IMG/VR virus record: IMGVR_UViG_3300006316_000001
Location: 1 to 64,000 of that record
Length of the DNA stretch: 64,000 bases
Reading direction: 5' to 3' (one strand)
From: a virus
Shown: positions 15,917 through 57,026 of the stretch, piece by piece
Layout: every line of letters starts with the position of its first letter
How positions within the stretch are numbered: position 1 is the stretch's first letter
Made by a program: the position numbers and the translations under genes
The notes under the pieces: model-generated
Databases searched by the model: none
Told to the model about the DNA's origin: nothing
What the model saw: the letters and a program-made list of their open reading frames with translations, nothing else

Positions 15917-16414
15917 TTATCCGCGAATGAACTCATTCAGGTCGATCTTAGGATGATTAAGTAGCTTACATACTTTGTCATCACTATTGCGGTGAATTGA
16001 GTAGCGAGGAATTCCGCCAACGTGAGTGCAGACGATACAGTGTGATTCCGTATTACCATTATAAAGCTCATTGAATGAAGCTTCAGCGAAACCGTAGTCT
16101 ATTGTGTATTTAGTGTGGTTCTCGCCACAAACCGCATTAATCGCGCCTTGGTATTCGTGACCGTGAAGGAAGTTGAAACCGGACACAACTACATCAAGGT
16201 CACAACCGCCATCAAGAACTTCGCTCATATCACGATTAGCGATAGCTCGAACGGTCTCATCCAACTCTTCTTGAATGCGTTTAGCTTGATTATCTAACGC
16301 AGCCCAATATTCGTCAGAACCTATCACTGGTGGCGTTTTACCCCAAATCTCATTGAAAAGCTTAACGTTGTTGAATGTTGTCATTTGTTGAGTGTTTTCT
16401 GATACTTTTGACAT
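15917..16414 (-). CDS. MazG/PRA-PH-like NTP pyrophosphohydrolase
   Basis: IQEELDET...EVLDG.CDL.VV motif; start moved to MSKVSE. Confidence 0.7.
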   Translation of the reverse strand: MSKVSENTQQMTTFNNVKLFNEIWGKTPPVIGSDEYWAALDNQAKRIQEELDETVRAIANRDMSEVLDGGCDLDVVVSGFNFLHGHEYQGAINAVCGENHTKYTIDYGFAEASFNELYNGNTESHCIVCTHVGGIPRYSIHRNSDDKVCKLLNHPKIDLNEFIRG

Positions 16415-16424
16415 GGATGTTTCC

Positions 16425-16904
16425 TTAGCTATTAGCCTTCTTTTGAGACTTCTTACGTTTGTTTTTCTGGATCCCACCCGCAACTTCCAACAGTTGGTCA
16501 AGTTGCGAGTCTGTTAGAACGCGAATCGCGTCCATTGCCTTTTCTTTTGTGTAGCCAGTCTTGTCCATCACATCCTTTAGTCTGGCTCCCTTAGCGGCTT
16601 TAGCCCACTTAGCAAACCCACGATGAGCAGGAATGGCACCCTTCAGGAAAACATATTGATATTCCTTGGGGATATGAGGAAGACGATTCATCAGTTGTGC
16701 AAACGGCATCGTATTTTGCGCCTGCATCAATCCTTTATTGATGATGAATGGGTCAAACCCCCGTAACTCTGGGTCATTTTCACGCAGGTCGTTCTTATCT
16801 TTGTTAATGCTACCAAGCCAATCAAACAGAGCAGGAGCAGCAGGTCGCTTATACTCCTCAACTATTTCTTCGGCTTCAATTTCTTCACCGAATAAGTTAA
16901 TCAT
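16425..16904 (-). CDS. 62: clamp loader small subunit (gp62-like)
   Basis: FD.L.SIN..K, F.PFIINKGL, QY.FL...I....F.KWAK. Confidence 0.8.
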   Translation of the reverse strand: MINLFGEEIEAEEIVEEYKRPAAPALFDWLGSINKDKNDLRENDPELRGFDPFIINKGLMQAQNTMPFAQLMNRLPHIPKEYQYVFLKGAIPAHRGFAKWAKAAKGARLKDVMDKTGYTKEKAMDAIRVLTDSQLDQLLEVAGGIQKNKRKKSQKKANS

Positions 16905-27806: not shown

Positions 27807-30164
27807 TTATGCGAAGAAGAAATCACTTTCTCTAACTTCTGACGCTTGAAGATCGCCCATCTCAAAGAAATCCGTGTAGTGAGGTAGGTTGGCTGCAGCT
27901 TCGTATTCACCATTTTCTCGTAAGAAGTCGACCCATTGATCGAACCACTTCTGCGGCCAGTTCTGTTCGTAGATGTCAACCCACGCTTCCTTAGCCTCAT
28001 GAAGAAGGGTTGCTGCATCATCAGGAGCTGAACCGAAAGAATCGTGAACCATAGCAAAATCTTCAATACCAACATCCTCACAACGATTGGTCGTAATGGA
28101 TAGATGGCTAGCATCACATGAGTGTGTTATGTTAGGTGAGCTTGAGCTCTCCATCTTAGCTTTGTTGATTTTGTTTGTATGGGTCAACATCTGGTAGTTC
28201 GTGTGCTTACCGTTGAATCTGATGTTAATATTCTTACGCTTCAGAATCTTCGGAGATTGTATGCATTGCATTCCGGCTGGGTTATCCCAAATCAACGGTA
28301 GGTTCACGGATGCTATGATACCAGCACAAGTTTGAACCCATTCCATGAATGCCATTGGACCCTTCAGCGATTCATCCATATTATCCCAAATACGTTCACC
28401 CATCCAGTTACCCGATTTAAATGGGTCACTGAAGTGATCTTCCTTACCACTATCAATGATGAACTCTTGGATACCCTCTTTTATGCCGTACAATTTCGCA
28501 CCATATGAACGAGTCATAACTGGTGTCTTAGTAATTTTACGGTCAAGAAGATTCGATGATAACCACTCAACGCCAAACGGACTACCGACGCCACGCAAAT
28601 CGCTAATCACACCATCACAAACATAACCATAAACATCACCACGCTTCTTAGTCTTAATTAGACCAACGTGGGGAGCAACAATACGGTCTCGTGTGATAGC
28701 AGCCAAGTTTTGAACGCCATTACACAAACCATCAAGTTGAACGTGGGTATTGATGAATGCTTGAGGGTTATCCAACCACTTCACATATTCAACAGCAGCC
28801 GCATAACCTTGGAATGGCTTATCCCAACCATGCCACAATTGACATTTGATAGGGTCTTTCACAACATCACGAAGAAGTTGCTCATTCGCTATAGTCCAAG
28901 CCACACGCTCATCAAGCTCAAGCTTATCATGACCGACAAGGTTGGCCATATTGATCATCATCCATCGAGCACCATCTAACGTTTTGACCTGTGTTGGTTT
29001 GAATTTGATCAAGCCTTTCTGATGGTCTGACCCCTGTGTATTTAGACCCGTCATACATTTATTGTAAATGCGCATACGAGAATCTAAGTCATGCGGAAAG
29101 AATATCTCAGGATAATCCTTGAACATTCTAGCCTGTTCAACTGAAGAACATCTCGATAGAATATTTGATACTCTACCTTGGCGCTTCTTCTTATTCAGTC
29201 GAACCTTTCGGCTCCACTTTCGGTGAATCTTTTTCTGGTCTTCGCTCATATCCGCATATTTGACATTAGGAAATGGCGCATTCTCATCATCAGGAACTGA
29301 CGCTGGGAATGCCTTCTTCAAAGATTCTGGACCATCTTCACCATATTGGTCAAAAAGGTTTAGTACATCAAGATTTACAGACCATGGTGTGCTTTGAATT
29401 GCGTTCATACCCTTTGCAATGTTCGCATTTATATTAGCATCTTCACCAACGTTCCTCTTCTTGATAGCATTAACCTTCAGTTGATCGCTATAGAAACCGC
29501 CATTATTACCCGTACTATCCCAATACTCAGGACGGTAGATCATCGGATAGATAACGTTGTTCATCATGGCAATGTTCTGGAGCTTACTTTCATATTTGAC
29601 GCGAAACTCTTCAGAGAGACCAACTAACCACTCCATGTGTTTAGAATCTGTATCAAAGAAATCTTTTCTGAATGTCAAAATATCAGTGAAGTTATCCTGA
29701 GCCAGTTGCAGAAGAACAAGAGAAACCTTACCACACTCAAACACACTCAACGCATCATCACCAACAATATTCGAATGAATTGTGTTACCAATTTGTGTGG
29801 ATATGTTAACGACCTTAAGATCACCATTCGCCATGTTAGTCATCAGTGAGCGCATAACAATGAATGACAATTGATCAGGAGTTGCCGGAAGATATTCAAA
29901 ACCAGTCTTGGTGTTCTTCTTGTTGATATAAAATCTCGCGTCACTGATCTTCATTAGCAGTGGTTTGTGCCCACTCTTATAGTTGACGCGCTCTTTTGCG
30001 GTGGCACTCTTGATTGCGCCTGTTAAACGCTCAATCATTTTCTCAAGAGTCTTTACCAGTGGACTATTGAAGTCATCGCTGGCTTCAACCGTCTCAAGGA
30101 ATTTCTCAGTACCTAGCCGCATCATATCATCTTCAAGTTGTATTTGATCATCATATGTCGACAT
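27807..30164 (-). CDS. T7-like single-subunit RNA polymerase
   Basis: FPHDLDSRMRIY, LDGLCNGVQ (motif A), RKITKTPVMTRSYG (motif B), PNITHSCDASHL, VHDSF (motif C), C-terminal SDFFFA. Confidence 0.95.
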   Translation of the reverse strand: MSTYDDQIQLEDDMMRLGTEKFLETVEASDDFNSPLVKTLEKMIERLTGAIKSATAKERVNYKSGHKPLLMKISDARFYINKKNTKTGFEYLPATPDQLSFIVMRSLMTNMANGDLKVVNISTQIGNTIHSNIVGDDALSVFECGKVSLVLLQLAQDNFTDILTFRKDFFDTDSKHMEWLVGLSEEFRVKYESKLQNIAMMNNVIYPMIYRPEYWDSTGNNGGFYSDQLKVNAIKKRNVGEDANINANIAKGMNAIQSTPWSVNLDVLNLFDQYGEDGPESLKKAFPASVPDDENAPFPNVKYADMSEDQKKIHRKWSRKVRLNKKKRQGRVSNILSRCSSVEQARMFKDYPEIFFPHDLDSRMRIYNKCMTGLNTQGSDHQKGLIKFKPTQVKTLDGARWMMINMANLVGHDKLELDERVAWTIANEQLLRDVVKDPIKCQLWHGWDKPFQGYAAAVEYVKWLDNPQAFINTHVQLDGLCNGVQNLAAITRDRIVAPHVGLIKTKKRGDVYGYVCDGVISDLRGVGSPFGVEWLSSNLLDRKITKTPVMTRSYGAKLYGIKEGIQEFIIDSGKEDHFSDPFKSGNWMGERIWDNMDESLKGPMAFMEWVQTCAGIIASVNLPLIWDNPAGMQCIQSPKILKRKNINIRFNGKHTNYQMLTHTNKINKAKMESSSSPNITHSCDASHLSITTNRCEDVGIEDFAMVHDSFGSAPDDAATLLHEAKEAWVDIYEQNWPQKWFDQWVDFLRENGEYEAAANLPHYTDFFEMGDLQASEVRESDFFFA

Positions 30165-30166
30165 GT

Positions 30167-30433
30167 CTATTTACCTTTAATTCTTGGTTGAATGTGGCAC
30201 CATGCGTCAGCCAGAGTTTTGAGATCAGGAAGAGGTCTCTCATCATGAAGACAATCCACAAATTCAATCTTACGTAAATCAGTGGGTACTGTGCTAGTGA
30301 AGTGTATCTCATTTGTCACATTTTCGGGGATCTCTTCACCATCGAAAAACTCGTCAGAAAGTGAATGAATAGCATCCATAGTTGAATGCCCCTCAACCAA
30401 AAAGTCGTTAATAAATTCTTCAGAAAAAGCCAT
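30167..30433 (-). CDS. acidic hypothetical protein co-transcribed with RNAP
   Basis: 88 aa, CAGGA RBS, 2-nt gap to the RNAP start. Confidence 0.65.
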   Translation of the reverse strand: MAFSEEFINDFLVEGHSTMDAIHSLSDEFFDGEEIPENVTNEIHFTSTVPTDLRKIEFVDCLHDERPLPDLKTLADAWCHIQPRIKGK

Positions 30434-30451
30434 ATAAATATCCTGTGGGGT

Positions 30452-30471
30452 TTCCTATTAGCCTTCTATTG
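30452..30471 (-). promoter_or_regulatory. putative phage-RNAP promoter (copy A)
   Basis: Exact CAATAGAAGGCTAATAGGAA, intergenic, pointing at the RNAP gene. Confidence 0.75.
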
Positions 30472-30504
30472 GGAAAGGGAAACCGCATGTTTTATGTCAA
30501 AAAA

Positions 30505-43661: not shown

Positions 43662-44018
43662 TTATTTTGAGCTGAGTTTGGGACTAAATTCCTCTTGTTC
43701 ATAACTCCCATCACGTTGTAGTATTATGGAGATACCATTATCCTTTAGTCTTCTCTCCAATAATTGAAGTTTGTGGCGGAAATCCTTGCGGTCACTCTTA
43801 AATGCCCCAAATTTACTCCAGTTCAGAATGTTATCCAAGATATCTGCAATACTTGCGGGTGCGGCAGTTACTTTACTGTGTTTGAACATTAATATCTTGC
43901 CCGTTTCTCTATCTCGAAGACACGCTTCAATTTGGTCATGACCAACATACGAGAACATCTCAACACGACCTTCAACAATGAATGTACCTTCCTTATCATA
44001 TTTACAAGACATAATCAA
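43662..44018 (-). CDS. hypothetical protein
   Basis: Coupled to the sigma gene. Confidence 0.6.
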   Translation of the reverse strand: MIMSCKYDKEGTFIVEGRVEMFSYVGHDQIEACLRDRETGKILMFKHSKVTAAPASIADILDNILNWSKFGAFKSDRKDFRHKLQLLERRLKDNGISIILQRDGSYEQEEFSPKLSSK

Positions 44019-44941
44019 CCCTTATTATCTTCAGTGATGAAATCATCAAAGTGAACATCAGCCAAGTCAACGTAGAATCGAAGTTTCGATAAGCCATCAT
44101 TTTGAAGTTGACGGATTCGTTCTCGTGTTAGACCGAAGTGTTGACCACACTCTTCTAGTGTTTGATCTTCAAAGTAGCGCATTCTGATGATCTCGGAAAT
44201 GCGAGGTTTGATCACACCAAGATAAGTGTTCACATATTTATTGAATGCTTCAGGATCAACATTCAGCGCGTTACCATCTTCATCGGCTATGTGATCGTGA
44301 TGATCTAAGAAGTCCATAGGTTTACCATCGTCACCTTCAACGATTAGTTCATCGAAGCCTCTGATCGAACCACACATGAGTTTGATTGCGCTTCGGATAG
44401 ACGTTCTAGTCAGACATGATTCATTGAGGTTCTTTTCTTTGACGTACGCAGAAATGATGTCAATGGCATCAACAGAATCAACAACCGTATTGGCTTGGCG
44501 AAGAGCTGCACGGGAAACCTGCATAGCACGACCAATGTGAACAGGATATCTCATGAATTGGTCAACGTGACCTTCCATCATGTATCGTACTATACTCTGA
44601 CGAATCCATTGCATTGAGTACGTTGATAGTTTGAAGCCGCTTTGAATGTCGAATTTATCGATAGCGATCATCAGACCCATCATACCTTGGTTAAATAGGT
44701 CAAGGTAAAACTCCTCACGGCCAGCACCTGAATATTTTCTGGCCATCTTACTAACCAGTTTGATATTGTGCTTGATCAGCTCATCGCGAGCCCAAGCAAC
44801 CTGACCCTGTTGCCATAAATCGATTAGGATTAGCTCACGCCCTTTCTCAAGAACGGAATGATCCATGTAAGGTTTGAACATCTCAGGAAGTTCAATTCTA
44901 ACTACTTTTTGTTTAGCTCTCATACTACGGACTCCCTGCAT
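44015..44941 (-). CDS. sigma70-family (RpoD/RpoS-like) sigma factor
   Basis: Region 2 NIKLV..ARKY...DL.NQG..GL..AIDKFD...GFKLSTY..WIRQ; region 4 TLEE.G..FGLTRERIRQ. Confidence 0.9.
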   Translation of the reverse strand: MQGVRSMRAKQKVVRIELPEMFKPYMDHSVLEKGRELILIDLWQQGQVAWARDELIKHNIKLVSKMARKYSGAGREEFYLDLFNQGMMGLMIAIDKFDIQSGFKLSTYSMQWIRQSIVRYMMEGHVDQFMRYPVHIGRAMQVSRAALRQANTVVDSVDAIDIISAYVKEKNLNESCLTRTSIRSAIKLMCGSIRGFDELIVEGDDGKPMDFLDHHDHIADEDGNALNVDPEAFNKYVNTYLGVIKPRISEIIRMRYFEDQTLEECGQHFGLTRERIRQLQNDGLSKLRFYVDLADVHFDDFITEDNKG

Positions 44942-45393: not shown

Positions 45394-45582
45394 TTATGAA
45401 TCCTTCTTGGTATTATCCGTGAAGCACCACACAATGGCCACTAACCAGAAGATTCCGGTGAACAGTCCAATAATGTTGCAAATAAGAATTGCAGCCGCGC
45501 TGTTGTGTTTTCGGTAGCAAGCTATGATCATTGGAGCGAACGCCAATACCGCAACCACTATAAGTAAAATTGTTGAAGCCAT
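45394..45582 (-). CDS. T4 Imm-like superinfection immunity membrane protein
   Basis: F.P.IIA..RKH....AI...N..G..TGI.W..A.VW pattern. Confidence 0.7.
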   Translation of the reverse strand: MASTILLIVVAVLAFAPMIIACYRKHNSAAAILICNIIGLFTGIFWLVAIVWCFTDNTKKDS

Positions 45583-45858: not shown

Positions 45859-45928
45859 AGGGAAGCTGTTAACCTTAACGCTTTACCCTATAGCAACCAT
45901 TATACTCTTATAGTTTTAGAAGTAAAGC
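45859..45928 (-). promoter_or_regulatory. promoter-stem-loop cassette copy 12 (long hairpin)
   Basis: TTTACT-N16-TATAAT plus AGGGTAAAGCGTTAAGGTTAACAGCTTCCCT. Confidence 0.8.
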
Positions 45929-46163
45929 CTTTTATTAAAGTTTTTTAATGTTCTGATCGCTGCTTTGGGTCTCTATTGAAATGTTCCGTTTACATTTTTT
46001 TCTTTTTTAGTTTCCGATATTCTTGTCTCTAATTCTCTCTATTATATTATAACCCCCGTTATTTTCCTCCGGAACGATCAAACGATCATACGATCATTCA
46101 ATCATTCCTTCGAAAAGGTCACGGACACGCTCACGCGCATCCTTAGACGTTCAACTGATAAAA

Positions 46164-46278
46164 GCATGCTCGCGTAGCGACTGTGCACAGCACAGCACAG
46201 CACTACACTCCCACAACATTCAACAACATCTCACCAGAACATTCCTTATATTTCCCACACACACGCGCGCGAGCATGC
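46164..46278. repeat. 11-bp inverted repeat around a G-poor microrepeat tract
   Basis: GCATGCTCGCG 46164-46174 and CGCGAGCATGC 46268-46278. Confidence 0.75.
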
Positions 46279-46328
46279 ACACGAGAGAGACACTCGATAT
46301 GACCCAGAATGCCAGTTTAAGTGAATTT

Positions 46329-46348
46329 CAATAGAAGGCTAATAGGAA
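46329..46348 (+). promoter_or_regulatory. putative phage-RNAP promoter (copy B)
   Basis: Exact CAATAGAAGGCTAATAGGAA before the capsid paralog. Confidence 0.75.
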
Positions 46349-46440
46349 GGAAAGTGTGCTTTTTAAAACACGCGACCTTTCATTTTATTGATGGGATAAT
46401 TCGATTACCCCATATCAAAACTAATGAGTGGGGAAATGAC

Positions 46441-47565
46441 ATGCATTTCAATAAGAAACTGAGAGCTATTGTTCTCGAAGCCGCACCACAACTGAAGGAA
46501 TCCATTCTTGAAGTTTTGAAAGCGGATAATGGTGAGATGAAGCTTGACCTTTCACGTAAGGTTAAACTTGACGACTCACTAAAGCTTAATGTTAAAACAT
46601 TGGCGATCGGTGGTACTGGTGGTGAAGCCCTAGCTATCGATGAATTGTTAATGGCTGATATCACAGATCGTGCTATTAACCAATTCTCAGGTATTTTTAC
46701 TGACCTTGATATTTCAGTGATCAATTCAGTGAATCATCGCGGTCTTGTGGAGTTAAATTCTCTTGGTGTAACTAAAGGCGTTGAAAACGTTCCTGGTCTA
46801 CCACAGTCTATGACTCCAACTGGTGAACTTGGTCAGCTTGTATCTCAGGTAGGTAAGGCTGCTATCATTACTTTTGTTTCGCAAGAAGCAGTGCGTGATA
46901 CGATGAATGGAGATTCGGTTTCTCTATGGGATTATATAGTTGAATCGGCTGCGCGCCAAATCGTACATTACTTCTCTATTCAGATCATCGCTGGAGATGG
47001 TAAACCTGACCGTCTTCGTGGCTTGGTATCTTCTAAGCGTATTGATGATGAAGAATCACTGAAGCCTGATCATGAACGTGACCCAGATTTTCTGCAAGTC
47101 AAACTATCAGGTGTCGATGGTGATTTTGGTACTGACGATAAGACAGCAGTTGAGAACATTGTATTTTTCTTGAACTCGGTTCCTTCGAAGAATCGTGCCA
47201 ATAGTAAAGTGTATATGAACTCAACAACTCACGCTGCGATTGAACTTCTTTCTTCTACGTCACCTCGTTTACGATTTGATGAAAAGGTTGTCGATGGTCA
47301 ACTGGTTACTACCGTTAATGGTTTTGTAATCTCTCTTGACGATATGATGCCTAATATGGATATGGGCTCAATCCCTATGTTGGTTGGCGATATTAATGCC
47401 GCTATTGAGTTTGCTTGGCACGACAAACAAACTGTCGTTGACCCATTCTCGATTGACGGTGCTATTAAATATAGTCAGTTCCCGCGTGCTTCAGAGCGTA
47501 TGAAAGATAATACCGCTTTACGAGCCTTCAAAATGTCAGCTGAAGCGATTCCTGCTCCTAATTAA
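46441..47565 (+). CDS. second HK97-fold capsid protein paralog
   Basis: KTLAIGGTGGEALAIDE, GDGKPDRLRGL.SSKR, MP, VDPF shared with MCP 55773..57026. Confidence 0.85.
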   Translation: MHFNKKLRAIVLEAAPQLKESILEVLKADNGEMKLDLSRKVKLDDSLKLNVKTLAIGGTGGEALAIDELLMADITDRAINQFSGIFTDLDISVINSVNHRGLVELNSLGVTKGVENVPGLPQSMTPTGELGQLVSQVGKAAIITFVSQEAVRDTMNGDSVSLWDYIVESAARQIVHYFSIQIIAGDGKPDRLRGLVSSKRIDDEESLKPDHERDPDFLQVKLSGVDGDFGTDDKTAVENIVFFLNSVPSKNRANSKVYMNSTTHAAIELLSSTSPRLRFDEKVVDGQLVTTVNGFVISLDDMMPNMDMGSIPMLVGDINAAIEFAWHDKQTVVDPFSIDGAIKYSQFPRASERMKDNTALRAFKMSAEAIPAPN

Positions 47566-47597
47566 AACTTGGGTTCAGAAACACAGTTATAGGTTTT

Positions 47598-47617
47598 CAA
47601 TAGAAGGCTAATAGGAA
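47598..47617 (+). promoter_or_regulatory. putative phage-RNAP promoter (copy C)
   Basis: Exact 20-mer; copies B and C share 30 of 31 bp. Confidence 0.75.
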
Positions 47618-47619
47618 GG

Positions 47620-47855
47620 GAAGTGCCGCAACCTTTTAGGTGTTAGCGCAGTTACATTATCACTACTGACTTTGACCCTTCAAACTATGGTGAACAATTC
47701 TGGGATGTCTAATTGAGCGTGATAAGCTCGACCCGAACATGAAAAATTCCCAGAGCCGTAGACCCCCATTTACGACGAGTGTGTTGGGGAATGCCTCGTC
47801 GTATCTTACCTTTGAACACTTTTCCCCTTCGGGTTGAGTATCCAAAGGTAAGGTT
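47620..47855 (+). ncRNA. structured 5' leader with RBS-sequestering hairpin
   Basis: TACGACGAG/CTCGTCGTA and CTTACCTTTG/CAAAGGTAAG stems. Confidence 0.5.
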
Positions 47856-48335
47856 ATGAAAAGAATAACAAACAACCAAAAAGAAATGTGGAGACTTTTC
47901 CTCCACGATAAGCAGAAAGGGATATGCCCACTTTGTGGAACTTATATTTCTCTCTGTAATGAAGACGGTAAGGATGAGTCCGTATTGGACCATGACCATG
48001 ATACAGGTCGTATCCGTGCCGTTCTCCATCGCAGCTGTAACTCTGCTGAGGGTAGAATTCTGAACTTCGCTGATAAGCGGTGTCGGAGTGAAGACCCTAA
48101 ATCGTTCTTGGTCAACATGGTGAAATATTGGGAAGCTGATTACAGTCATCACCCATTCCACCCTGACCATACTATTGAGGAAGAAGATGAACGTCTGAAA
48201 TTGAAGCGCAAACTGAAGAACTTGAAGGCAGCACATGCCATCGATAAAACCAAAAAGCGCATCGCTGAATTGTCAGAAATCATCAAAGCGAGTATCGAAC
48301 TTGTTCCTCCACCTTCTGAATGGTTTAAAAAGTGA
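47856..48335 (+). CDS. endonuclease VII-family resolvase
   Basis: CPLC...LDHDH.TG.IRAVL.R.CN..EG. Confidence 0.8.
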   Translation: MKRITNNQKEMWRLFLHDKQKGICPLCGTYISLCNEDGKDESVLDHDHDTGRIRAVLHRSCNSAEGRILNFADKRCRSEDPKSFLVNMVKYWEADYSHHPFHPDHTIEEEDERLKLKRKLKNLKAAHAIDKTKKRIAELSEIIKASIELVPPPSEWFKK

Positions 48336-48342
48336 GTGCACT

Positions 48343-48576
48343 ATGAATGGTAAAATTCCTGAGCGTGGCTATTTCGGTAGTAGCTCGAAGATGCTTGCAC
48401 TCACTGATGATTTCATTTCTGGTATCCGTCAGAAATGTAAAGAGCGCAAGTTGAAATTCAGCTTCCAGAAGAAAGACGATTACACAACCGATTTCCAAAT
48501 TGGTTATGATCTATATCGTTTGTCTAATAATGGTACGAGCGCATCGACCCAATTTTTGGGCACAATGAAATTCTAG
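48343..48576 (+). CDS. hypothetical protein
   Basis: Start at MNGKIPE after the EndoVII stop. Confidence 0.55.
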   Translation: MNGKIPERGYFGSSSKMLALTDDFISGIRQKCKERKLKFSFQKKDDYTTDFQIGYDLYRLSNNGTSASTQFLGTMKF

Positions 48577-48651
48577 GACGGTTAGCTCAGTAGGTAGAGC
48601 AGTGGACTGTTAATCCATTGGCCACAGGTTCAAGTCCTGTACTGTCCGCCA
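48576..48651 (+). tRNA. tRNA-Asn(GTT)
   Basis: Acceptor GGACGGT/ACTGTCC, anticodon loop CTGTTAA, T-loop TTCAAGT, CCA end. Confidence 0.9.
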
Positions 48652-49195
48652 GTTTCGGTAAAGTATCTCACCTGATCAGTTAGTGAAAATCCGAAGTCAC
48701 CTTTTAAGAATCTAGAGTCTATGAAGGTGATGGAGCGGGGCATCTCCTAAACTGCCCAACAATGTTGCATTAAATGAAGTTCCTGACAGTCAGGAAGTGA
48801 ATGTTCACTACTGGACAGCTTCATTTAATCATCGCTTTCTTAGCTGAGTTGGTTTAGTGGGACTCAGACCCAAGAGCCATTTCAAAATATGATTTGCAAA
48901 AAGAAAACACCTCCACAAACTAGGATATCCGAGTGGTATAAATGGTGCGGTAAAAGTCCGAAGTATCCGCGAATTAATTTCATGCATCCTGAGATTTACA
49001 GGCTTCACGAAATCATGTGTGTAAGAGCAGGTCGTTTCGCCCCCAAACGTTGTGTGGGGCATAATTTAAGCATTCTTCAACCACTTATAGTTGGCCACCG
49101 TATTGTGGTGTCTCACTGGAGAGTGTTTAAATTATCTACATTCAGTTCGCCAGAAGTAACTTTTCAAAAGTGCGGTGGTGCTGAATGTTTCATTT
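48652..49195 (+). ncRNA. structured non-coding RNA modules between tRNAs
   Basis: Consecutive stems, two multibranch domains, one H-type pseudoknot. Confidence 0.5.
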
Positions 49196-49273
49196 GTGCC
49201 TAAAGCTCATTAGGTATGAGCCGTCGCCTCATAAGCGAAGGGTAGATGGGTTCGAATCCCTCTAGGCGCACCA
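49196..49273 (+). tRNA. tRNA(CAT), Met or Ile2
   Basis: Acceptor GTGCCTA/TAGGCGC, loop CTCATAA, TTCGAAT, CCA end. Confidence 0.85.
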
Positions 49274-49302
49274 CTCCAATGTTTGACTATTCAGAGGTAT
49301 CT

Positions 49303-49533
49303 ATGAAGACTATCGAACAATTGGTCAAGCATATGAAAGAAACATATGATGTGACCATCACTCCTGAAATGCAAAGCCGCATCGAAGGAATTAGAAAACC
49401 GACTAGCAAAACCGATTTTCCAGGAATCACGTTGATCGCTCCATATCGTGGCCAGTTTGGTGTACATCGTATCATCGAAAAGGATGAATGCATCTTTTCT
49501 ATATCTGATACATTTCTGACCGCAATTAAATGA
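49303..49533 (+). CDS. hypothetical protein
   Basis: GAGG RBS, start MKTIEQ. Confidence 0.55.
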   Translation: MKTIEQLVKHMKETYDVTITPEMQSRIEGIRKPTSKTDFPGITLIAPYRGQFGVHRIIEKDECIFSISDTFLTAIK

Positions 49534-49543
49534 GGATTTAACG

Positions 49544-49957
49544 ATGTCTCTTGATCAAAAACACCCAGATTACGCAAAACATGTTCTGATCACTAAAGGT
49601 GATGGGAAAGTTACAGCTTCAAACCTTTACATTTTCACTACTCGAAAGGAACGTCGCGGGTACTTTATCTGTGATAGTGAAGGTAATCCGCTGGAACCGC
49701 AAGTGATTAACGATAAGATCTCTGAGCCTTCAGTTCCTGAGATCACTACACAACCGATGCCTGACCTTCAGACATCTGATGTTGAAATCACTACACAGGC
49801 AACTCCTGAACTTGAAGTGAAAGAACCTGAGATCGAAGTCAAAGTCGATGAATCGGCTGTACCTGAAGACCTTGTTTGCCCTCATTGTGAAGCCAAAGCT
49901 CGCACTGAATCTTCATATTTGAAGAATCATGGCGACAACTGCTCAATGAAGGTGTAA
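49544..49957 (+). CDS. hypothetical protein with acidic linker and C-terminal Zn finger
   Basis: GAGG RBS; CPHC...H.DNC. Confidence 0.65.
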   Translation: MSLDQKHPDYAKHVLITKGDGKVTASNLYIFTTRKERRGYFICDSEGNPLEPQVINDKISEPSVPEITTQPMPDLQTSDVEITTQATPELEVKEPEIEVKVDESAVPEDLVCPHCEAKARTESSYLKNHGDNCSMKV

Positions 49958-50014
49958 GTTTGGTGTTGGGGGTAGTTTCCTCGCCCTCAGCGCCCTTTTG
50001 CCTAGGAGTGTGTT

Positions 50015-50410
50015 ATGATACCTGTTAAGTGTGTCGCTCCAGGATGTCGAACCATCGTTCGTGATCCAGGGCATAGTCGGTGCGAGCTCCACCGCAAAAA
50101 GCAAAAAGGGCATGCCAATAAGGTTCGCGCTGAACAGAGAAAAGTGCAGAACAAAGCGAAGTCCTTTATATACAATACAGCATCATGGAAACGTTTGTCT
50201 ATTAAGAAGAGAACCGTTGATCCATTTTGTGAAGAATGTCTACTCCAGAATCCGGTAATCTATAAACAGGCTGACGTGGTCGACCATATTGTCGAACTTA
50301 CTGATGGTGGTGAGCCATATCTTTGGACCAACCTCAGATCCCTCTGTCACGCTTGTCACAACCGGAAAACTGCTCAAGAAAAGAAAAAGCGAAAGCGCAA
50401 TATTGTGTAG
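50015..50410 (+). CDS. HK97 gp74-like packaging HNH endonuclease
   Basis: C..PGC...C..H, Y....W, P.CE.C, VVDHI...GG.....NL.SLC..CHN.KT. Confidence 0.85.
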   Translation: MIPVKCVAPGCRTIVRDPGHSRCELHRKKQKGHANKVRAEQRKVQNKAKSFIYNTASWKRLSIKKRTVDPFCEECLLQNPVIYKQADVVDHIVELTDGGEPYLWTNLRSLCHACHNRKTAQEKKKRKRNIV

Positions 50411-50461
50411 TGTCGTTCATCCCTTTGCGAACGGCACTACACAAACAATCGAGGATTTATT

Positions 50462-51346
50462 ATGTACATTAAAATAGGTATGCGTGAAATCGAACTTGAT
50501 CTTGACGCAAAATACCATGTGTATGGTGAAAACATCGATGCGCAAGCTGTTGTCGAAATGGACTTTGAGCATCTCAACTGGTTAGACCAACGTATTGTGT
50601 CGCAGAGCATCAACCTCAATCAGGAAATTTCAATACTATTCCATCCGGAAGTTGTCTCTAGCTTGGAGACTGAAATTGAGAACAGTCCTTTTTGGGAGAA
50701 AAACCGTTTCGAAGCTTTAGCCGTATTCAGACGTCTTCAACAGAAGACACCGGATGCAAAAGAAGACAAGCAGAAACGGAAGATGCTGAAGGAAGTTGAT
50801 TTGAAAGAATCCAAGTACGTTCAGAAACGCTTCAGAGTCGTGAATATGCTGGTGTCCCGAGGGTATGAACGCCCTGACGCTATGGAATATTTGACCGCAG
50901 TTATTGAACAGAAAGGTTCAGGCGTCATGAACTTGAAGCCAGCTGAGATATGTGATTTCGTTGACATATTCACTGGTGCAGTTCAAGATCCAAATGAAAC
51001 CCAGTATCATACACGTGATGATACTCGTCCTTGCACGTTGTACTATTTACAGTTCACTCACCAACAAACGGGTGAGACGTTCAAGAAAATAGGTATAACT
51101 GTGAGACCATTGGCTGAGAGATTTGTATTGGACGTTAAGACATTCGATCTTGACATTATCCATACAGTGGAACTTCCGGCTAATGAAGCAAAAGACATCG
51201 AAGCGGCTATCAAGAAAGAGTTTAAGCCATACAAGTACACCCCTGAAACCAAATTGCGTAAAGGTGGTGATACTGAATGCTTCACTGATGAACTTATTGA
51301 TGCGTCCGTCATGAAGATGATGGGCAGAAACAAAGTTTCATTGTAG
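50462..51346 (+). CDS. protein with C-terminal GIY-YIG-like (T5orf172/MUG113-type) nuclease domain
   Basis: LYY......F.KIGIT......RF....E..IK......GG.TECF. Confidence 0.6.
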   Translation: MYIKIGMREIELDLDAKYHVYGENIDAQAVVEMDFEHLNWLDQRIVSQSINLNQEISILFHPEVVSSLETEIENSPFWEKNRFEALAVFRRLQQKTPDAKEDKQKRKMLKEVDLKESKYVQKRFRVVNMLVSRGYERPDAMEYLTAVIEQKGSGVMNLKPAEICDFVDIFTGAVQDPNETQYHTRDDTRPCTLYYLQFTHQQTGETFKKIGITVRPLAERFVLDVKTFDLDIIHTVELPANEAKDIEAAIKKEFKPYKYTPETKLRKGGDTECFTDELIDASVMKMMGRNKVSL

Positions 51347-51401
51347 AATTAACAGAAGGTCATTTAGATGGCCTTTGATTAATTTTGCTAAGGATATTGT
51401 T

Positions 51402-53159
51402 ATGAATTATCTTAAGAAGGTAAAGAATTTCGATATGGAGCAATTCAACCATGGGGTTCCCGAATATAATATGACTTGGGAGTCCATGGACCAATATGCA
51501 TACAATGTCATGATGGGAATTGTTCCCGTCGGAAAACAAGTAAAGTATTGTGTGGCTCGTTATATTTATGATCGAGTTACAAGAAAAGATTTAGAATTGA
51601 GAACTCACGAAGTAGATGAGTTGTGTCAATTCGCTGGTCTGTTGAAACACGTTAAAGGTCCATTGAATGGTAAGCCTGTCGAGTTGATGAACTGGATGGT
51701 ATTCGTTCTTGGTAACATCTTCGGATGGTATCACAAAACTGGGCATAAGAAAGGTACGCGAAGATTCACCAAAGCATTCACATTAGTTGCTCGTGGTAAT
51801 GCAAAATCTTTCTTATGTTCCATTGTTGCTCTTTGGACTCAGTTGACCTCACCCAACGGTTCTCCGTCATGTTATTCAGTTGCTCGTCAACGGGATCAGG
51901 CGAGAATCGTTTTTGACGATGCGTCTAAGATGCTTAGAAATGCTGATCCTATTTTGAGGCGTTGGTTCAAACCCCACGCCCATGATATGGAGTGTATATT
52001 CCAAGATGGTATCTTTAAACCGATGTCGTCAGATTCTCAATCGTTGGATGGGCACCGTGTTGCTTTGGGTATCGCTGATGAGCTACACGCTCACCACAGT
52101 GGTGAACTCCTTAACACATTATTGTCTGGTACGACAGCTGTTAATGATCCTCTAGTATTCTCAATATCTACCGCTGGTAAACAGTTGGAAGGTGTTTGTG
52201 TTTCAGAGAGGAATGTTGTGCGCTCAATCAATGAAGGCTTCGAAAAAGAGGATTCATACTTCGGTATCGAATATGCCCTTGATGAAGATGATGATTGGGA
52301 TGACGAGAGTTGTTGGTATAAATCCAACCCATCTCTTGGACATGCTGTGAGTATTGACGATTTGCGTGGTAAGGTTGTTCGTGCTAAGAATAACGTAGTT
52401 AACCGCGTTGATTTCCAGACCAAGCACTGTAACATATTTGTGAACACCAATGATAATCCATATTTGGACATCTTGGAACTTCAAATAAAATGTGCCAGAG
52501 AAGACCAGAAACTGTCAGACTATGTCGGACGGGAATGTTTCGGTGGTCTCGATTTGGCGCAGAAAACGGATTTGACCGCTCTAGCATTATTGTTCCCTGA
52601 GAAAGATGGTTCATTGACTGCTTTCTTCCGGCACTACCTACCTGAAGGTGCGTTGGAAAAACAGACCGCAGGTCGTTATGAAGCATATCTTCAGTGGGAA
52701 GAAGAAGGACACATGATATTCACGGAAGGTTTTTCCACGGATTATGCGTTCATAGAAAAGGACATTCGTTGGGCTGCTAAGAATTTCGATCTTCAGCAAG
52801 TTGGGTTTGACCCATACGCTGGTACGCAGCTAGCACTTGGCCTTATCAAAGATAATATTGATATGGTCGAGGTTCGCCAAGGCTATGCGAGTTTGAGTGA
52901 ACCTGCCAAGTTATTCCAATCTCTAATCGTCGACGGCAAATTCAACTATCAGGATTCTGACAAAGTCTTTGAGTGGTGTGCATCAAACTCTGTTTGTAGC
53001 GCCGACCTCAACGAGAACATCAAAGTCCATAAGGCGAAAGATAAGCCTCATGACAAGGTTGACTCTATTGTTGCCTTGATTACTGGCTTGGCTCTTGCCA
53101 AGTTGAAAGAACCTAAGAAGAAATCACCATACCGTAAACGGGGTATGTTGGTTGTTTAG
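51402..53159 (+). CDS. terL: terminase large subunit (HK97-like)
   Basis: VARGNAKS Walker A variant, ADELH, ISTAG, GLDLA...DLTA, FDPY, KVDS.VA. Confidence 0.95.
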   Translation: MNYLKKVKNFDMEQFNHGVPEYNMTWESMDQYAYNVMMGIVPVGKQVKYCVARYIYDRVTRKDLELRTHEVDELCQFAGLLKHVKGPLNGKPVELMNWMVFVLGNIFGWYHKTGHKKGTRRFTKAFTLVARGNAKSFLCSIVALWTQLTSPNGSPSCYSVARQRDQARIVFDDASKMLRNADPILRRWFKPHAHDMECIFQDGIFKPMSSDSQSLDGHRVALGIADELHAHHSGELLNTLLSGTTAVNDPLVFSISTAGKQLEGVCVSERNVVRSINEGFEKEDSYFGIEYALDEDDDWDDESCWYKSNPSLGHAVSIDDLRGKVVRAKNNVVNRVDFQTKHCNIFVNTNDNPYLDILELQIKCAREDQKLSDYVGRECFGGLDLAQKTDLTALALLFPEKDGSLTAFFRHYLPEGALEKQTAGRYEAYLQWEEEGHMIFTEGFSTDYAFIEKDIRWAAKNFDLQQVGFDPYAGTQLALGLIKDNIDMVEVRQGYASLSEPAKLFQSLIVDGKFNYQDSDKVFEWCASNSVCSADLNENIKVHKAKDKPHDKVDSIVALITGLALAKLKEPKKKSPYRKRGMLVV

Positions 53160-53183: not shown

Positions 53184-54524
53184 ATGAATTTTATTTCTAA
53201 AATAAAGGGTGCATTAAGTGGTACATCAACTCCAGTCAAGCCTTATGTTCCAGAAATGAAACAGAAGGCGAATCCGTACAGTGATAATTCATTTTTCGGC
53301 AGCTTAGGTGTTAAATCATCATACGCTGGCGTTGACGTCAATTATACGAGCGCAATGAGACACAATGATGTTTACACATGTGTTCGTATAAAGGCTGAAT
53401 CATTAGGACAACTTCCTATTCAGCTATACCGTCACAACGCAGATCGAAAAACGAGAATTACATCAGGACGTGAATACAAGATATTCACGCAGAAACCTAA
53501 CGCATATCAGACATGGCAAGATTTCATTGAGCAATACGTTGCATCATTAGAAATCCAAGGCAACTTTTATGCTGAGATTAAGCGAAATACATACGGAAAC
53601 GTGTATGAGATTGTACCATTCAGATACCAGAACAACGTGAGCGTTGAGATGGATTCTTATGGTCGTGTGTACTACACATACTCAACTAACGATGGCAAAG
53701 GGCGAGTCGAAAAGAAGACATACGCTCCTTCATCAATACTACACGTTAAATTGTTCACCACAGATGGCTATCGAGGATTATCCCCGATAACTCAATGTGC
53801 GAGAGCAGTGGGTGTCGCAATCGCAAGTGAAACCACCGCAGCTACAATGTTCGAAAAAGGAGCAAAGCCTGCAGGTGTGTTACAAACAGACGAAGTGTTC
53901 GATGATGACGATGATTCTATAAACCGTCTTCGCGACCAATGGCAAGAATTATATGGTGGACCTGATAACTCGGGTAAGATCGCCATCCTTGAATCAGGTT
54001 TGAAATTCCAATCTGTTTCATTGTCTGCTGTTGATTCACAACTTCTGGAACAACGTAAATTCACTCGTGAACAAATCTCATCAATCTTCAGAGTTCCATT
54101 ACACATGCTTCAAGCAGCTTCCGGTATGAAATATGCCTCGGTTGAGGGTAACAATAAATCTTTCTATAAAGATGCGTTGATGCCTTTGGCTATTAAGTTG
54201 CAGAATGCGATTAATGAAATTCTACCAGAGAACCATACCATTAAAATGGACGAGAAAGAATTCGTCCGTGGCGACCGTGAGTCGCATGTTAAGACAGTCA
54301 AGGAAGAATTGACTGCTGGGTTTATCTCTATCAATGAAGGTCGAATCGAATTAGGTTATCAGCCAGTCGAAGGTGGCGATGTATTTGCTGTACAGACGAA
54401 TAACTTGACGTTCGGGCGTTATGATGAACTACCATCAGTTGAGGAACAGATGAAATCTAAGAATCCATCCAGTCCTGAGCCTAAACCTGATGCCCCTCCG
54501 AAGGAGAGTAACAATGGCACGTAA
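53184..54524 (+). CDS. HK97-family portal protein
   Basis: VY.CV...AE.L..LP, KPN..QT, GLSPI, IFRVP, SINEGR. Confidence 0.95.
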   Translation: MNFISKIKGALSGTSTPVKPYVPEMKQKANPYSDNSFFGSLGVKSSYAGVDVNYTSAMRHNDVYTCVRIKAESLGQLPIQLYRHNADRKTRITSGREYKIFTQKPNAYQTWQDFIEQYVASLEIQGNFYAEIKRNTYGNVYEIVPFRYQNNVSVEMDSYGRVYYTYSTNDGKGRVEKKTYAPSSILHVKLFTTDGYRGLSPITQCARAVGVAIASETTAATMFEKGAKPAGVLQTDEVFDDDDDSINRLRDQWQELYGGPDNSGKIAILESGLKFQSVSLSAVDSQLLEQRKFTREQISSIFRVPLHMLQAASGMKYASVEGNNKSFYKDALMPLAIKLQNAINEILPENHTIKMDEKEFVRGDRESHVKTVKEELTAGFISINEGRIELGYQPVEGGDVFAVQTNNLTFGRYDELPSVEEQMKSKNPSSPEPKPDAPPKESNNGT

Positions 54525-55671
54525 AATGCAAACAAAAGGTTTTGACCAAAAGATTATCATCAAGTCCAAGGATGACGCACCGGAAGGTACATTCGTGGCA
54601 TATGGTAATGTGTTTGGCGTGAAAGATAACGCTGGTGACATCACAGTCAAAGGCTGTTTCTCAAACACAATTAAAAAGCATAAGTCTGAAGGCACAATGC
54701 CTCGCTTATTGGCGCAACACGGACATCGTATGATGCCTATTGGTATCATAACTGATATGATTGAAGACGAAAAAGGTCTTCGCTTTGAAGGTCAATTCTG
54801 CCTTGAGACGCAAGCTGGCTCTGAAGCCCACGCTCTTTGTAAGATGGGCGCAATCGATCAGTTTAGTATCGGTTACGTGACACTTGATCAAGAGATGACA
54901 ACTAAAGGTAATCTGTTAAAAGAACTTGACGTTGCTGAAATTTCTCTTGTGACTTTCGCTTGTAATGAACATTCAACATTAGTGGACGTTAAGTCAGCAG
55001 TGGAGAATGAAGAATTGACCCCGCGCCTTCTTCAGAAAGCGATCCGCGATGCATTCGGTCTTTCTAAACGTCAGTCTGAAGCAGCTATTAATGCGATAAA
55101 AGCGACTGAGCGTGAAGAAGTTGAAGAAGAATCCACCGAAGTTAAAGAACTTGGGTTGGACGAAGCGTTCCGCGTCAAAATGTCAGAAGCTCCGGAACTT
55201 ACTAAGTTCTCCGACGGACTTGAAGTCAAGTCCCTTGGCGATAAGTCTTTCCAACAGGTTCTTTCTGGAATCAAATCAGCTCTGGTTGAACCAATCGGTC
55301 ACTGGGATTTCTATCTTGATGATGTATTTGAATCTAAAGGATATGTCGAATTCTGTGACTACCGCGCTCGCAAGTACAAGCATGCTGAGTTCGAATGGAT
55401 GATGGACGACATGGGCGAAGTTCAAGTGACTTCCTTCAAGACTGGCACCAAAGAATACGGCACAACATTTGTTGTTGATGCTGAAGATGGCGTTAAAAAT
55501 AACGTTGACGACATCGAATCTAAACACGAAGATGAAGAAACTGTTGAATCATTAGCAGCGAAACTTCTTGGTGTTGATTTCGAGACCAAAGAAGAATCGG
55601 ATGTTGAAAATAACACAAAAGCCGATGATATTGATCTCGAAACTATTGATCTAACTGAATTGCTCAAGTAA
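54514..55671 (+). CDS. HK97-type prohead protease with long acidic C-terminal extension
   Basis: F.AYGNVF..D..GD....G.F, LL.QH....PIG, FSIGY, EISLVTF..N. Confidence 0.9.
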   Translation: MARKMQTKGFDQKIIIKSKDDAPEGTFVAYGNVFGVKDNAGDITVKGCFSNTIKKHKSEGTMPRLLAQHGHRMMPIGIITDMIEDEKGLRFEGQFCLETQAGSEAHALCKMGAIDQFSIGYVTLDQEMTTKGNLLKELDVAEISLVTFACNEHSTLVDVKSAVENEELTPRLLQKAIRDAFGLSKRQSEAAINAIKATEREEVEEESTEVKELGLDEAFRVKMSEAPELTKFSDGLEVKSLGDKSFQQVLSGIKSALVEPIGHWDFYLDDVFESKGYVEFCDYRARKYKHAEFEWMMDDMGEVQVTSFKTGTKEYGTTFVVDAEDGVKNNVDDIESKHEDEETVESLAAKLLGVDFETKEESDVENNTKADDIDLETIDLTELLK

Positions 55672-55772: not shown

Positions 55773-57026
55773 ATGTCTGCTATTGAACAAATCAAAGAAG
55801 CTCAAACACTAGCTGTTAAAGAAGCAACGGCTCCACTGAACGAAAAACTAGACCAACAAGAACTTGTCATCAAAGAACAAGGTGAACTGATCACATCACA
55901 AACTGAGCTTCTTGAAGAAGTTAAGCAAACTGTTGCTGATCTTGAATCTAAGCACTCTGATCTGGTTCCTGCTTCTGTGGAAGTGTCTGAAGTTAAATTC
56001 GACCGCAAAGTGCTGAACCAAAAGCTACGTGATCTATTCACTGGCGATAAAGGTGTTGACCTTGCGAATGTTGACACTAAAGCTCTTGCTGTTGGTGGTA
56101 CTGGCGGTGAAGCCCTAGCTATCGATGAAGAACTAGGTCGTCGCGTTATCGAGCGTTCTCGTGAAAACGTTGCAATCCTTGGTCTAATCGGTTCTAAGTC
56201 TGTAAGTTCTGTTAACTATCGTGAGATGGTTCTTCGTAACTATCCTGGTACTGCTAAAGGTATCGAGAACGTTGCTGGTACTGACTGGAATGCGACAGCG
56301 ACACAGACTTACGAACAGGTTGTGATGCAAGTTGCTAAGCAATACGCGAAGCCACAAATCACACACGAAGCTGCACGTGACCCACACATCGACCTAATGG
56401 CGCATCTTGAAACACTACTAGCTGAAGAAATGTCTCGTTACTGGGCTCTTCAAGTTCTATTCGGTGATGGTCGCCCTGATAACCTTCGCGGTATCCTATC
56501 AAGCAAACGCGCATCACTTGGTGCTGGCTCAGAATCTCGTAAAGATGCTGCTGAGCGTGACTTCGACTTCTACAAAGTTGTACCATCAACTGAAGCCGCT
56601 AAACTTGGTTCTGATCATGAAGAGATCATCGACAACATGATTGATCTGACTATCGAAGTTCCAACTCAGTACCTATCTAATTCATCTTACACGATGAACC
56701 GTCGTACTCTGGGTGTTCTTCGTAAGATCAAACAATCTACGGATGGTACTGATCTTCGTCCTCTGATCCAATTCGAAGCTGGTAACTTTACTCTTGTTGG
56801 CTATGGTGTTAACATCGAAGACTACATGCCTGATGTTGCGACTGACTCAATGCCGATCATCTTTGGTGATCTTTCTCGCGCATTCGTTCTTATCGACATC
56901 GATGACGAGTACCTAGTTGACCCATACACCACAGATGGTGTTGTTACGCTGAAGTCTACTTCTCGTAAAGGTGAAATTGTTCAGAACAACGATGCTATCG
57001 TTATTCTGTCGTGTGAAGCAGCATAA
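55773..57026 (+). CDS. major capsid protein (HK97 fold with delta domain)
   Basis: Follows the protease; coiled-coil N-terminus; GDG..N.RGIL, IIFGD, VDPYT; followed by a terminator. Confidence 0.9.
   Translation: MSAIEQIKEAQTLAVKEATAPLNEKLDQQELVIKEQGELITSQTELLEEVKQTVADLESKHSDLVPASVEVSEVKFDRKVLNQKLRDLFTGDKGVDLANVDTKALAVGGTGGEALAIDEELGRRVIERSRENVAILGLIGSKSVSSVNYREMVLRNYPGTAKGIENVAGTDWNATATQTYEQVVMQVAKQYAKPQITHEAARDPHIDLMAHLETLLAEEMSRYWALQVLFGDGRPDNLRGILSSKRASLGAGSESRKDAAERDFDFYKVVPSTEAAKLGSDHEEIIDNMIDLTIEVPTQYLSNSSYTMNRRTLGVLRKIKQSTDGTDLRPLIQFEAGNFTLVGYGVNIEDYMPDVATDSMPIIFGDLSRAFVLIDIDDEYLVDPYTTDGVVTLKSTSRKGEIVQNNDAIVILSCEAA

Follow-up and report, generated by a model that had tools for sequence, protein, structure and literature searches.

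To our knowledge, the heads of tailed phages have almost always been described as structures made of one shell protein. T4, a myovirus with a prolate head and a separate scaffold, has two, gp23 and gp24, whose genes are neighbours and are considered to be duplicates; the propeptide of the vertex protein gp24 is much shorter than that of gp23. In HK97, the delta domain of the capsid protein is needed for self-assembly. Two distinct major capsid proteins (MCPs) have been described in the isometric head of mycobacteriophage Jabs, a siphophage, where MCPh (ORF72) forms the hexons and MCPp (ORF73) the pentons (10.64898/2026.07.24.740622). The two Jabs genes are adjacent, MCPp has a reduced axial domain and is 257 aa long, versus 594 aa for MCPh, and the capsid is disulfide-linked (10.64898/2026.07.24.740622). 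The initial annotation of the DNA studied here stated that HK97-type heads use one capsid gene, T4 being the exception; this statement is too narrow, as Jabs is a further exception (10.64898/2026.07.24.740622).

The stretch of DNA that we analysed (64,000 nucleotides, hereafter the window) comprises positions 1 to 64,000 of the IMG/VR record IMGVR_UViG_3300006316_000001, the 106,815-bp genome of a marine Vibrio-type phage, which is 100% complete according to CheckV. DNA of this phage is found in metagenomes of marine plankton. Genes are oriented leftward from 407 to 44,941, rightward from 46,441 to 86,733, and leftward beyond. A search of the whole 106,815-bp record revealed exactly two MCP-like genes, the resident MCP gene in the head module and a second gene at the head of the rightward, late strand. 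The relevant features of this strand are as follows.

46441..47565, plus strand: second capsid-fold gene, HK97 family, 374 aa plus stop
46441..46596, plus strand: short propeptide of its product (residues 1-52), with a predicted helix at 3-27, then a low-confidence linker up to the invariant Lys52
46597..47562, plus strand: predicted mature shell domain (residues 53-374), with N-arm, E-loop, spine helix, P and A domains
47856-51346, plus strand: nuclease genes between the second capsid gene and the large terminase gene, namely EndoVII (47856-48335), an HNH endonuclease (50015-50410) and an endonuclease-like protein of 294 aa (50462-51346)
48576-48651 and 49196-49273, plus strand: tRNA-Asn and tRNA-Met, about 540 nt apart, within the late operon in the EndoVII to terminase region
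51375-53159, plus strand: terminase, in the head module
53184-54524, plus strand: portal
54490-55671, plus strand: prohead maturation protease (phrog_80, E 9e-52)
55773..57026, plus strand: resident MCP, 417 aa, with a delta domain of 103 aa

The resident MCP is 58-59% identical to the MCPs of the Vibrio phages henriette 12B8, 2.058.O and V6Aob, all three being siphophages with genomes of 99-107 kb. No clear candidate for a small terminase was found. Very high cross-matching depth was observed in metagenomes at the tRNA.

This phage resembles T4 in that its genome encodes two HK97-fold shell proteins, of which the putative minor one has the shorter propeptide. One prohead protease processes both proteins in T4, as has been demonstrated; here the product of 54490-55671 is the presumed processing enzyme for both, and we infer its action on the second one. 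The phage differs from T4 in being of siphovirus type and in having an MCP with a delta domain, and its second gene lies 8 kb off, at the head of the late strand, and belongs to another MCP lineage. Jabs, with two distinct MCPs in one siphophage, is the best precedent for the penton role proposed below, and the second capsid gene of our phage is likewise co-resident with a distinct major MCP gene. In contrast with the Jabs pair, the two mature domains are of nearly equal size (322 aa in the second capsid protein and 314 aa in the MCP) and the genes stand apart; the pair is known here from its genes. With HK97 gp5 and the capsid proteins of the Rhodobacter gene transfer agent (GTA) and of EcCI2 (1ohg, 6tb9 and 9gyi respectively), the second capsid protein has fold and family in common, and K103/S104 of HK97 is aligned with its Lys/x junction (the slash marks the known or presumed cut). 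These three are sole shell proteins, whereas in this phage the protein is present in addition to the resident MCP and has half a delta domain.

The protein had been described as a full-length, collinear but diverged homologue of the MCP, and our comparisons agree with this description. The two proteins are 31% identical over 332 positions (E 3e-47), residues 45-367 of the second capsid protein being aligned with residues 96-416 of the MCP, and they are collinear, with short gaps only. Both score above the curated cut-offs of PF05065 (53.2 bits for the second capsid protein and 118 bits for the MCP; cut-off 24.2) and of TIGR01554 (57.6 and 138 bits; cut-off 27.5), and the second capsid protein also matches phrog_10 (E 6e-10). 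The distance to the MCP gene, given as 9 kb, is 9.3 kb from start to start and 8.2 kb from stop to start. The delta domain is shortened, as had been noted, with a propeptide of 52 residues versus 103 in the MCP. No significant similarity was found between this propeptide and the MCP delta domain, the BLAST alignment beginning at residue 45.

An AlphaFold2 model of the second capsid protein was built from a 49-row alignment (mean pLDDT 85, pTM 0.75). It is disordered at residues 47-58 and then shows a complete HK97 fold, with N-arm, E-loop, P domain with its spine helix and A domain, all confidently modelled. The best solved structures matched by Foldseek were the GTA capsid 6tb9 (E 4e-19), the capsid 9gyi of the capsid-forming satellite (cf-PICI) EcCI2 and HK97 1ohg (E 2e-11). 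According to this model, ORF 46441-47565 encodes a complete HK97-fold capsid protein. Co-folding of the mature MCP with the mature second capsid protein gave a score of 0.00 and no verdict. The ORF is open from a GTG at 46321, upstream of the ATG at 46441. The latter is supported as the true start: one natural variant has lost 2 nt at 46359, which would put the 403- and 414-aa forms proposed by some gene callers out of frame, and one database record likewise gives the 374-aa form. Because of this deletion, the two longer forms were discarded. Two minus-strand ORFs (46380-46724 and 47709-48236) were also discarded, as they overlap coding regions of the opposite strand.

The same apparent maturation junction had been reported in both proteins, and it is indeed present in each: NVK52/T53LAIGG in the second capsid protein and DTK103/A104LAVGG in the MCP, that is, a common pattern K/xLA[IV]GG. 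In the alignment, the P1 Lys and several residues of the N-arm are invariant across the second-gene clade and the MCP. From the profile alignment, we take this Lys/x junction to be the equivalent of K103/S104, the cleavage site of HK97. After the predicted cut at Lys52, the N-terminus of the second capsid protein would begin with TLAIGGTGGEALAIDELL. Just after the junction, the two genes have a nearly identical tract.

46609..46644, plus strand: 12-codon tract GGTGGEALAIDE, identical at 35 of 36 nt to 56094-56129 in the MCP gene
56094..56129, plus strand: matching tract in the MCP gene, with 12 identical residues and 35/36 identical nt

Over 12 aligned codons, the mean identity of the two capsid genes is 17.5/36 nt, versus 35/36 in the tract. 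The same codon is used at 11 of the 12 tract positions (P about 3e-3 given the codon usage of both genes), and same-codon use outside the tract is at the expected level. The MCP genes of the relatives match the tract at 30-31 of 36 nt. Possible causes are a short gene-conversion patch between the co-resident genes or a codon-level constraint. Judging from the two translations, both capsid proteins present an identical sequence right after the presumed cleavage site. The conserved junction and the 12 identical residues fit with the action of one protease and with one role of the N-arm, cleavage being predicted.

The second capsid protein has few close relatives. When 1.84 billion representatives were searched exhaustively with HMMER, just two others at the 50%-identity level were more than 33% identical to it. 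Clustering at 90% identity gives a clade of five. Besides the window protein, it contains P0004, on a JGI contig, which is 63% identical to the window protein and has the same truncated N-terminus (MHFNKKLR); P0005 (CAH7477151.1, locus VCHA38O209_50275), 56% identical and encoded on a 355-kb contig of a chromosome of Vibrio chagasii 38_O_209; P0006, also on a JGI contig, 50% identical; and P0007, 49% identical. In all five, a Met is aligned with the start of the window protein. The short N-terminal form appears to be old, because it is found in P0004 despite 63% identity, which suggests that the truncated form has been kept across a divergence comparable with that between this phage and henriette. 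P0005 and P0006, the most distant of the long homologues, both carry an N-terminal extension (residues 1-75). A segment of it, GLGLT...PDQ, is weakly conserved, with 11/26 identical residues and E 7e-4 when the two sequences were searched against each other; these two proteins have either a full-length delta domain or over-called starts.

In a maximum-likelihood tree, the second-gene clade is monophyletic (SH-aLRT 100), and a well-supported branch separates it from the clade that includes the MCPs of this phage and of henriette together with five metagenomic relatives. A grouping of the second-gene clade with the resident MCP clade was rejected by the AU test (p 0.0012), but this result is weaker than the p value suggests, because the group was named after the tree had been seen and long branches are present. 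No second MCP-like gene was found in the three GenBank relatives (henriette 12B8, 2.058.O and V6Aob) or in five IMG/VR relatives, one of which is a 97.8-kb record that is 95% complete. Searches of viral, genome and metagenome contigs for related loci, with the second capsid protein or the clade alignment as query, returned none. The initial annotation called the gene a paralog of the MCP gene; it is a real homologue of the MCP in the same genome, but a simple duplication within the phage is contradicted by its separate lineage and by its absence from the eight relatives. Because of this separate MCP lineage in the tree and AU test, and because the relatives have one MCP, the second capsid gene is better described as an acquired gene or a very old xenologue than as a recent duplicate. 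It therefore is not the adjacent duplicate of the MCP gene that a T4- or Jabs-like arrangement would call for, lying 8.2 kb upstream with tree and AU test against duplication, although this property is arguably not a defining one.

When the second capsid protein was used as a tblastn query against GenBank phages, 111 places were matched in 110 records; a single record, from a Vibrio or Aeromonas phage, thus contains two MCP-like places. The MCP query matched 174 places in 171 records. The extra places could be further two-MCP phages or split matches.

The second capsid gene is flanked on both sides by a promoter-like repeat. The copies and variants of this motif in the window, and the two phage genes that could provide a reader for it, are listed here.

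46326..46356, plus strand: promoter-like repeat, copy 1, 85 nt upstream of the ATG at 46441
47595..47625, plus strand: promoter-like repeat, copy 2, 30 nt after the stop of the second capsid gene and ahead of the late operon (EndoVII, two tRNAs, HNH endonucleases, head genes)
30450..30473, minus strand: variant of the motif (20/24 positions), preceding an 88-aa ORF (30167-30433) and the RNA polymerase gene
16424..16447, minus strand: weaker variant (19/24 positions), preceding a MazG-like gene (15917-16414)
27807..30164, minus strand: T7-like single-subunit RNA polymerase, 785 aa (PF00940, 236 bits)
44015-44941, minus strand: phage sigma factor (phrog_351, E 4e-38)

Copies 1 and 2 are identical over 25 nt, and over 31 nt with one mismatch. 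The motif has a T7-like shape: an AT-rich 5' part is followed by TAATA and then by GGAAGG, in a contiguous arrangement devoid of the split sigma-70 form, and its G run stands in TAATAGGAAGG. As for T7-type promoters, a contiguous motif of about 20 nt is found in sense orientation upstream of genes, at four sites, in a genome that encodes a polymerase. No terminator-like site was found on the plus strand between the second capsid gene and copy 2; this gene is therefore called a promoter-flanked cassette ahead of the late operon. No match to the cassette was obtained when GenBank phages were searched at the DNA level.

The initial annotation had assigned to the second capsid gene its own promoter for a phage RNA polymerase. 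The repeated upstream motif is real and a T7-like RNA polymerase is encoded, and a dedicated promoter of this kind is plausible; the link to that polymerase is drawn from the shape of the motif, and the sigma factor encoded at 44015-44941 is an alternative reader. As both a sigma factor and a T7-like RNA polymerase are encoded, this phage may have up to three transcription tiers. The motif was not found in the late-operon leaders of henriette, V6Aob and 2.058.O. In our phage it also heads non-late genes, the MazG gene and the RNA polymerase operon, and for this reason a late timing of the second capsid gene is a presumption. With the gene as query, one 149-nt contig lying inside it was found in the metatranscriptome run X9; this contig may be DNA carry-over and is not counted as expression of the gene.

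Several properties of the second capsid gene are those of a functional gene. Its codon typicality ranks 8th among the 72 ORFs of at least 150 aa, below the MCP, a tail-region gene, SSB and a recombinase among others, and its GC3 is 0.32, versus 0.33 for the MCP gene. This codon use, like that of highly expressed genes, fits with high expression and with a long residence in the genome. In a variant that is about 97% identical, from a 2025 metagenome of a different study, the ORF is intact, and all the indels listed are in the flanking non-coding DNA. In the population, variants of the second capsid protein differ at 1-8 of its 374 residues, which is similar to the variation of the MCP (1-4 of 417) and of the portal (4-5 of 446). 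No contig joining across the cassette was found in the metagenome variants.

We propose, tentatively and at not quite an even chance, that the second capsid protein is a protease-processed minor subunit of the shell, probably located at the pentons, as are T4 gp24 and Jabs MCPp. Among the options offered by the initial annotation (a penton-specific or size-determining subunit, an alternative shell, or a decoy), a penton or minor subunit appears the best supported. We propose it because the protein has a full shell fold, a processing junction and a halved propeptide unrelated to that of the MCP, and because its gene combines codon adaptation with the motif also present ahead of the late operon. 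Fold, intact gene, conserved junction, common upstream motif, codon bias and retention in variants are direct observations; from these we infer expression timing, cleavage, incorporation and shell position as follows. The gene would be under the control of its own copy of the motif, which is found in front of the late operon as well. Its product would fold as an HK97-type protein and join procapsids built by the MCP, which has a full delta (scaffolding) domain; the halved and MCP-unlike delta domain fits with a subunit that depends on the MCP scaffold. The prohead protease would then cut it after Lys52, as it would cut the MCP after Lys103. The most likely site would be the eleven pentons, with hexons made of the MCP and pentons of the second protein. 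Several properties count against a minor shell subunit. The gene appears to be of foreign lineage; it also lies 8 kb from the head module, in contrast with the side-by-side genes of T4 and of Jabs. The predicted mature domain is full-sized, unlike that of Jabs MCPp, and the relatives do without the gene. Since the three GenBank and five IMG/VR relatives manage with one MCP, the second gene is dispensable for this type of head.

The main alternative is a capsid gene captured from a prophage or satellite lineage of the Vibrio hosts, its delta-truncated product serving outside the virion as a decoy for capsid-sensing immunity, or co-assembling with the capsid protein of a competing prophage or satellite of the same clade and thereby poisoning its assembly. 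We consider this unlikely, though not strongly so. It would account for the separation of the second-gene clade from the resident MCP clade in the tree and AU test, for the presence of P0005 in a V. chagasii chromosome, for the occurrence of the satellite capsid 9gyi among the best solved folds and for the truncation of the assembly (delta) domain. The placement is also that of an accessory gene: outside the head module, at the boundary of the early region, in a promoter-flanked cassette that the relatives lack. Yet the complete shell fold and the protease junction have been kept, which a decoy would not obviously need, and the chromosomal homologue, at 56% identity, is rather distant for a co-assembly partner. 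A PADLOC search of the second capsid protein gave no match, neither a capsid-sensing system nor a satellite of this phage is known, we found no published case of an MCP homologue used as a decoy, and nothing relevant was found in the literature on V. chagasii satellites with capsid genes. A cf-PICI-type island would bring its own portal, protease, connectors and integrase; in the window, the gene has no such companions around it and is placed between the divergent intergenic region and EndoVII. Beyond the chromosomal homologue and the accessory-like placement, nothing else points to a mimic. That a virulent marine phage uses a captured, scaffold-truncated capsid protein as a dominant-negative weapon or an immunity decoy is, as a proposition of its own, unlikely.

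Two other explanations have less in their favour. Flanking direct repeats could mediate gain or loss of the cassette, so that a foreign capsid gene might have entered by recombination at the promoter repeat and be a useless passenger that has not yet decayed; the absence of the gene from the relatives and the very small size of its clade agree with such an event. However, codon use is fully adapted to the genome, diverged natural variants keep an intact ORF and show an amino-acid divergence like that of MCP and portal, no contigs joining across the cassette were found, and a homologue of 63% identity (P0004) has the same N-terminal truncation; we regard a passenger as very unlikely. Even less probable is the assembly of a separate particle or of a second type of shell, for example a smaller or alternative head, from the second capsid protein alone. 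The full length of the capsid protein, its conserved propeptide and the promoter copy of its gene could suggest it, but the genome, which has only two MCP-like matches, lacks a second portal, protease or scaffold, and the propeptide is half the usual length of the delta domain that HK97 needs for self-assembly.

A second intact capsid gene in a phage genome is real and rare, and heads with two MCPs are already known. What is new here is the detached position of the gene behind a duplicated putative promoter, the combination of a foreign lineage with a truncated delta domain, and the nearly identical nucleotide tract in the second and resident genes. T4 and Jabs indicate that the corners and faces of a head can be specialised. 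If the proposed role is true, this phage would represent another route to two-protein heads, in which a foreign capsid gene is recruited into a delta-domain system while remaining detached and driven by a duplicated promoter. A structural role would make the protein a natural experiment in fitting a heterologous subunit to a lattice and a protease pathway that already exist; with a non-structural role, it would be the first known capsid homologue to act as a mimic in phage-host or phage-satellite conflict.

The DNA surrounding the cassette showed additional features. Upstream of the second capsid gene, positions 46117-46242 of the window are hypervariable non-coding DNA with ACGATCA repeats and CACAG/AACAT runs. 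The approximately 97% identical variant (run X5) has 85 different letters in place of 93 nt, together with a 30-nt insertion at 46117. A cassette of about 60 nt with a strong sigma-70-like promoter (TTTACT-N16-TATAAT) is present in about 25 copies, at 1100-45930 in the window and beyond it up to 104 kb. All are oriented leftward, ahead of early and middle genes, and differ from the repeat at 46326; an example is found at 45899-45926 on the minus strand, and one copy drives the gene that adjoins the intergenic region of the second capsid gene. Finally, a small gene at the start of the leftward early block (45394-45582, minus strand) matches 'immunity to superinfection' (phrog_1039, E 6e-16), and V6Aob has a similarly annotated superinfection-immunity gene at the equivalent relative position.
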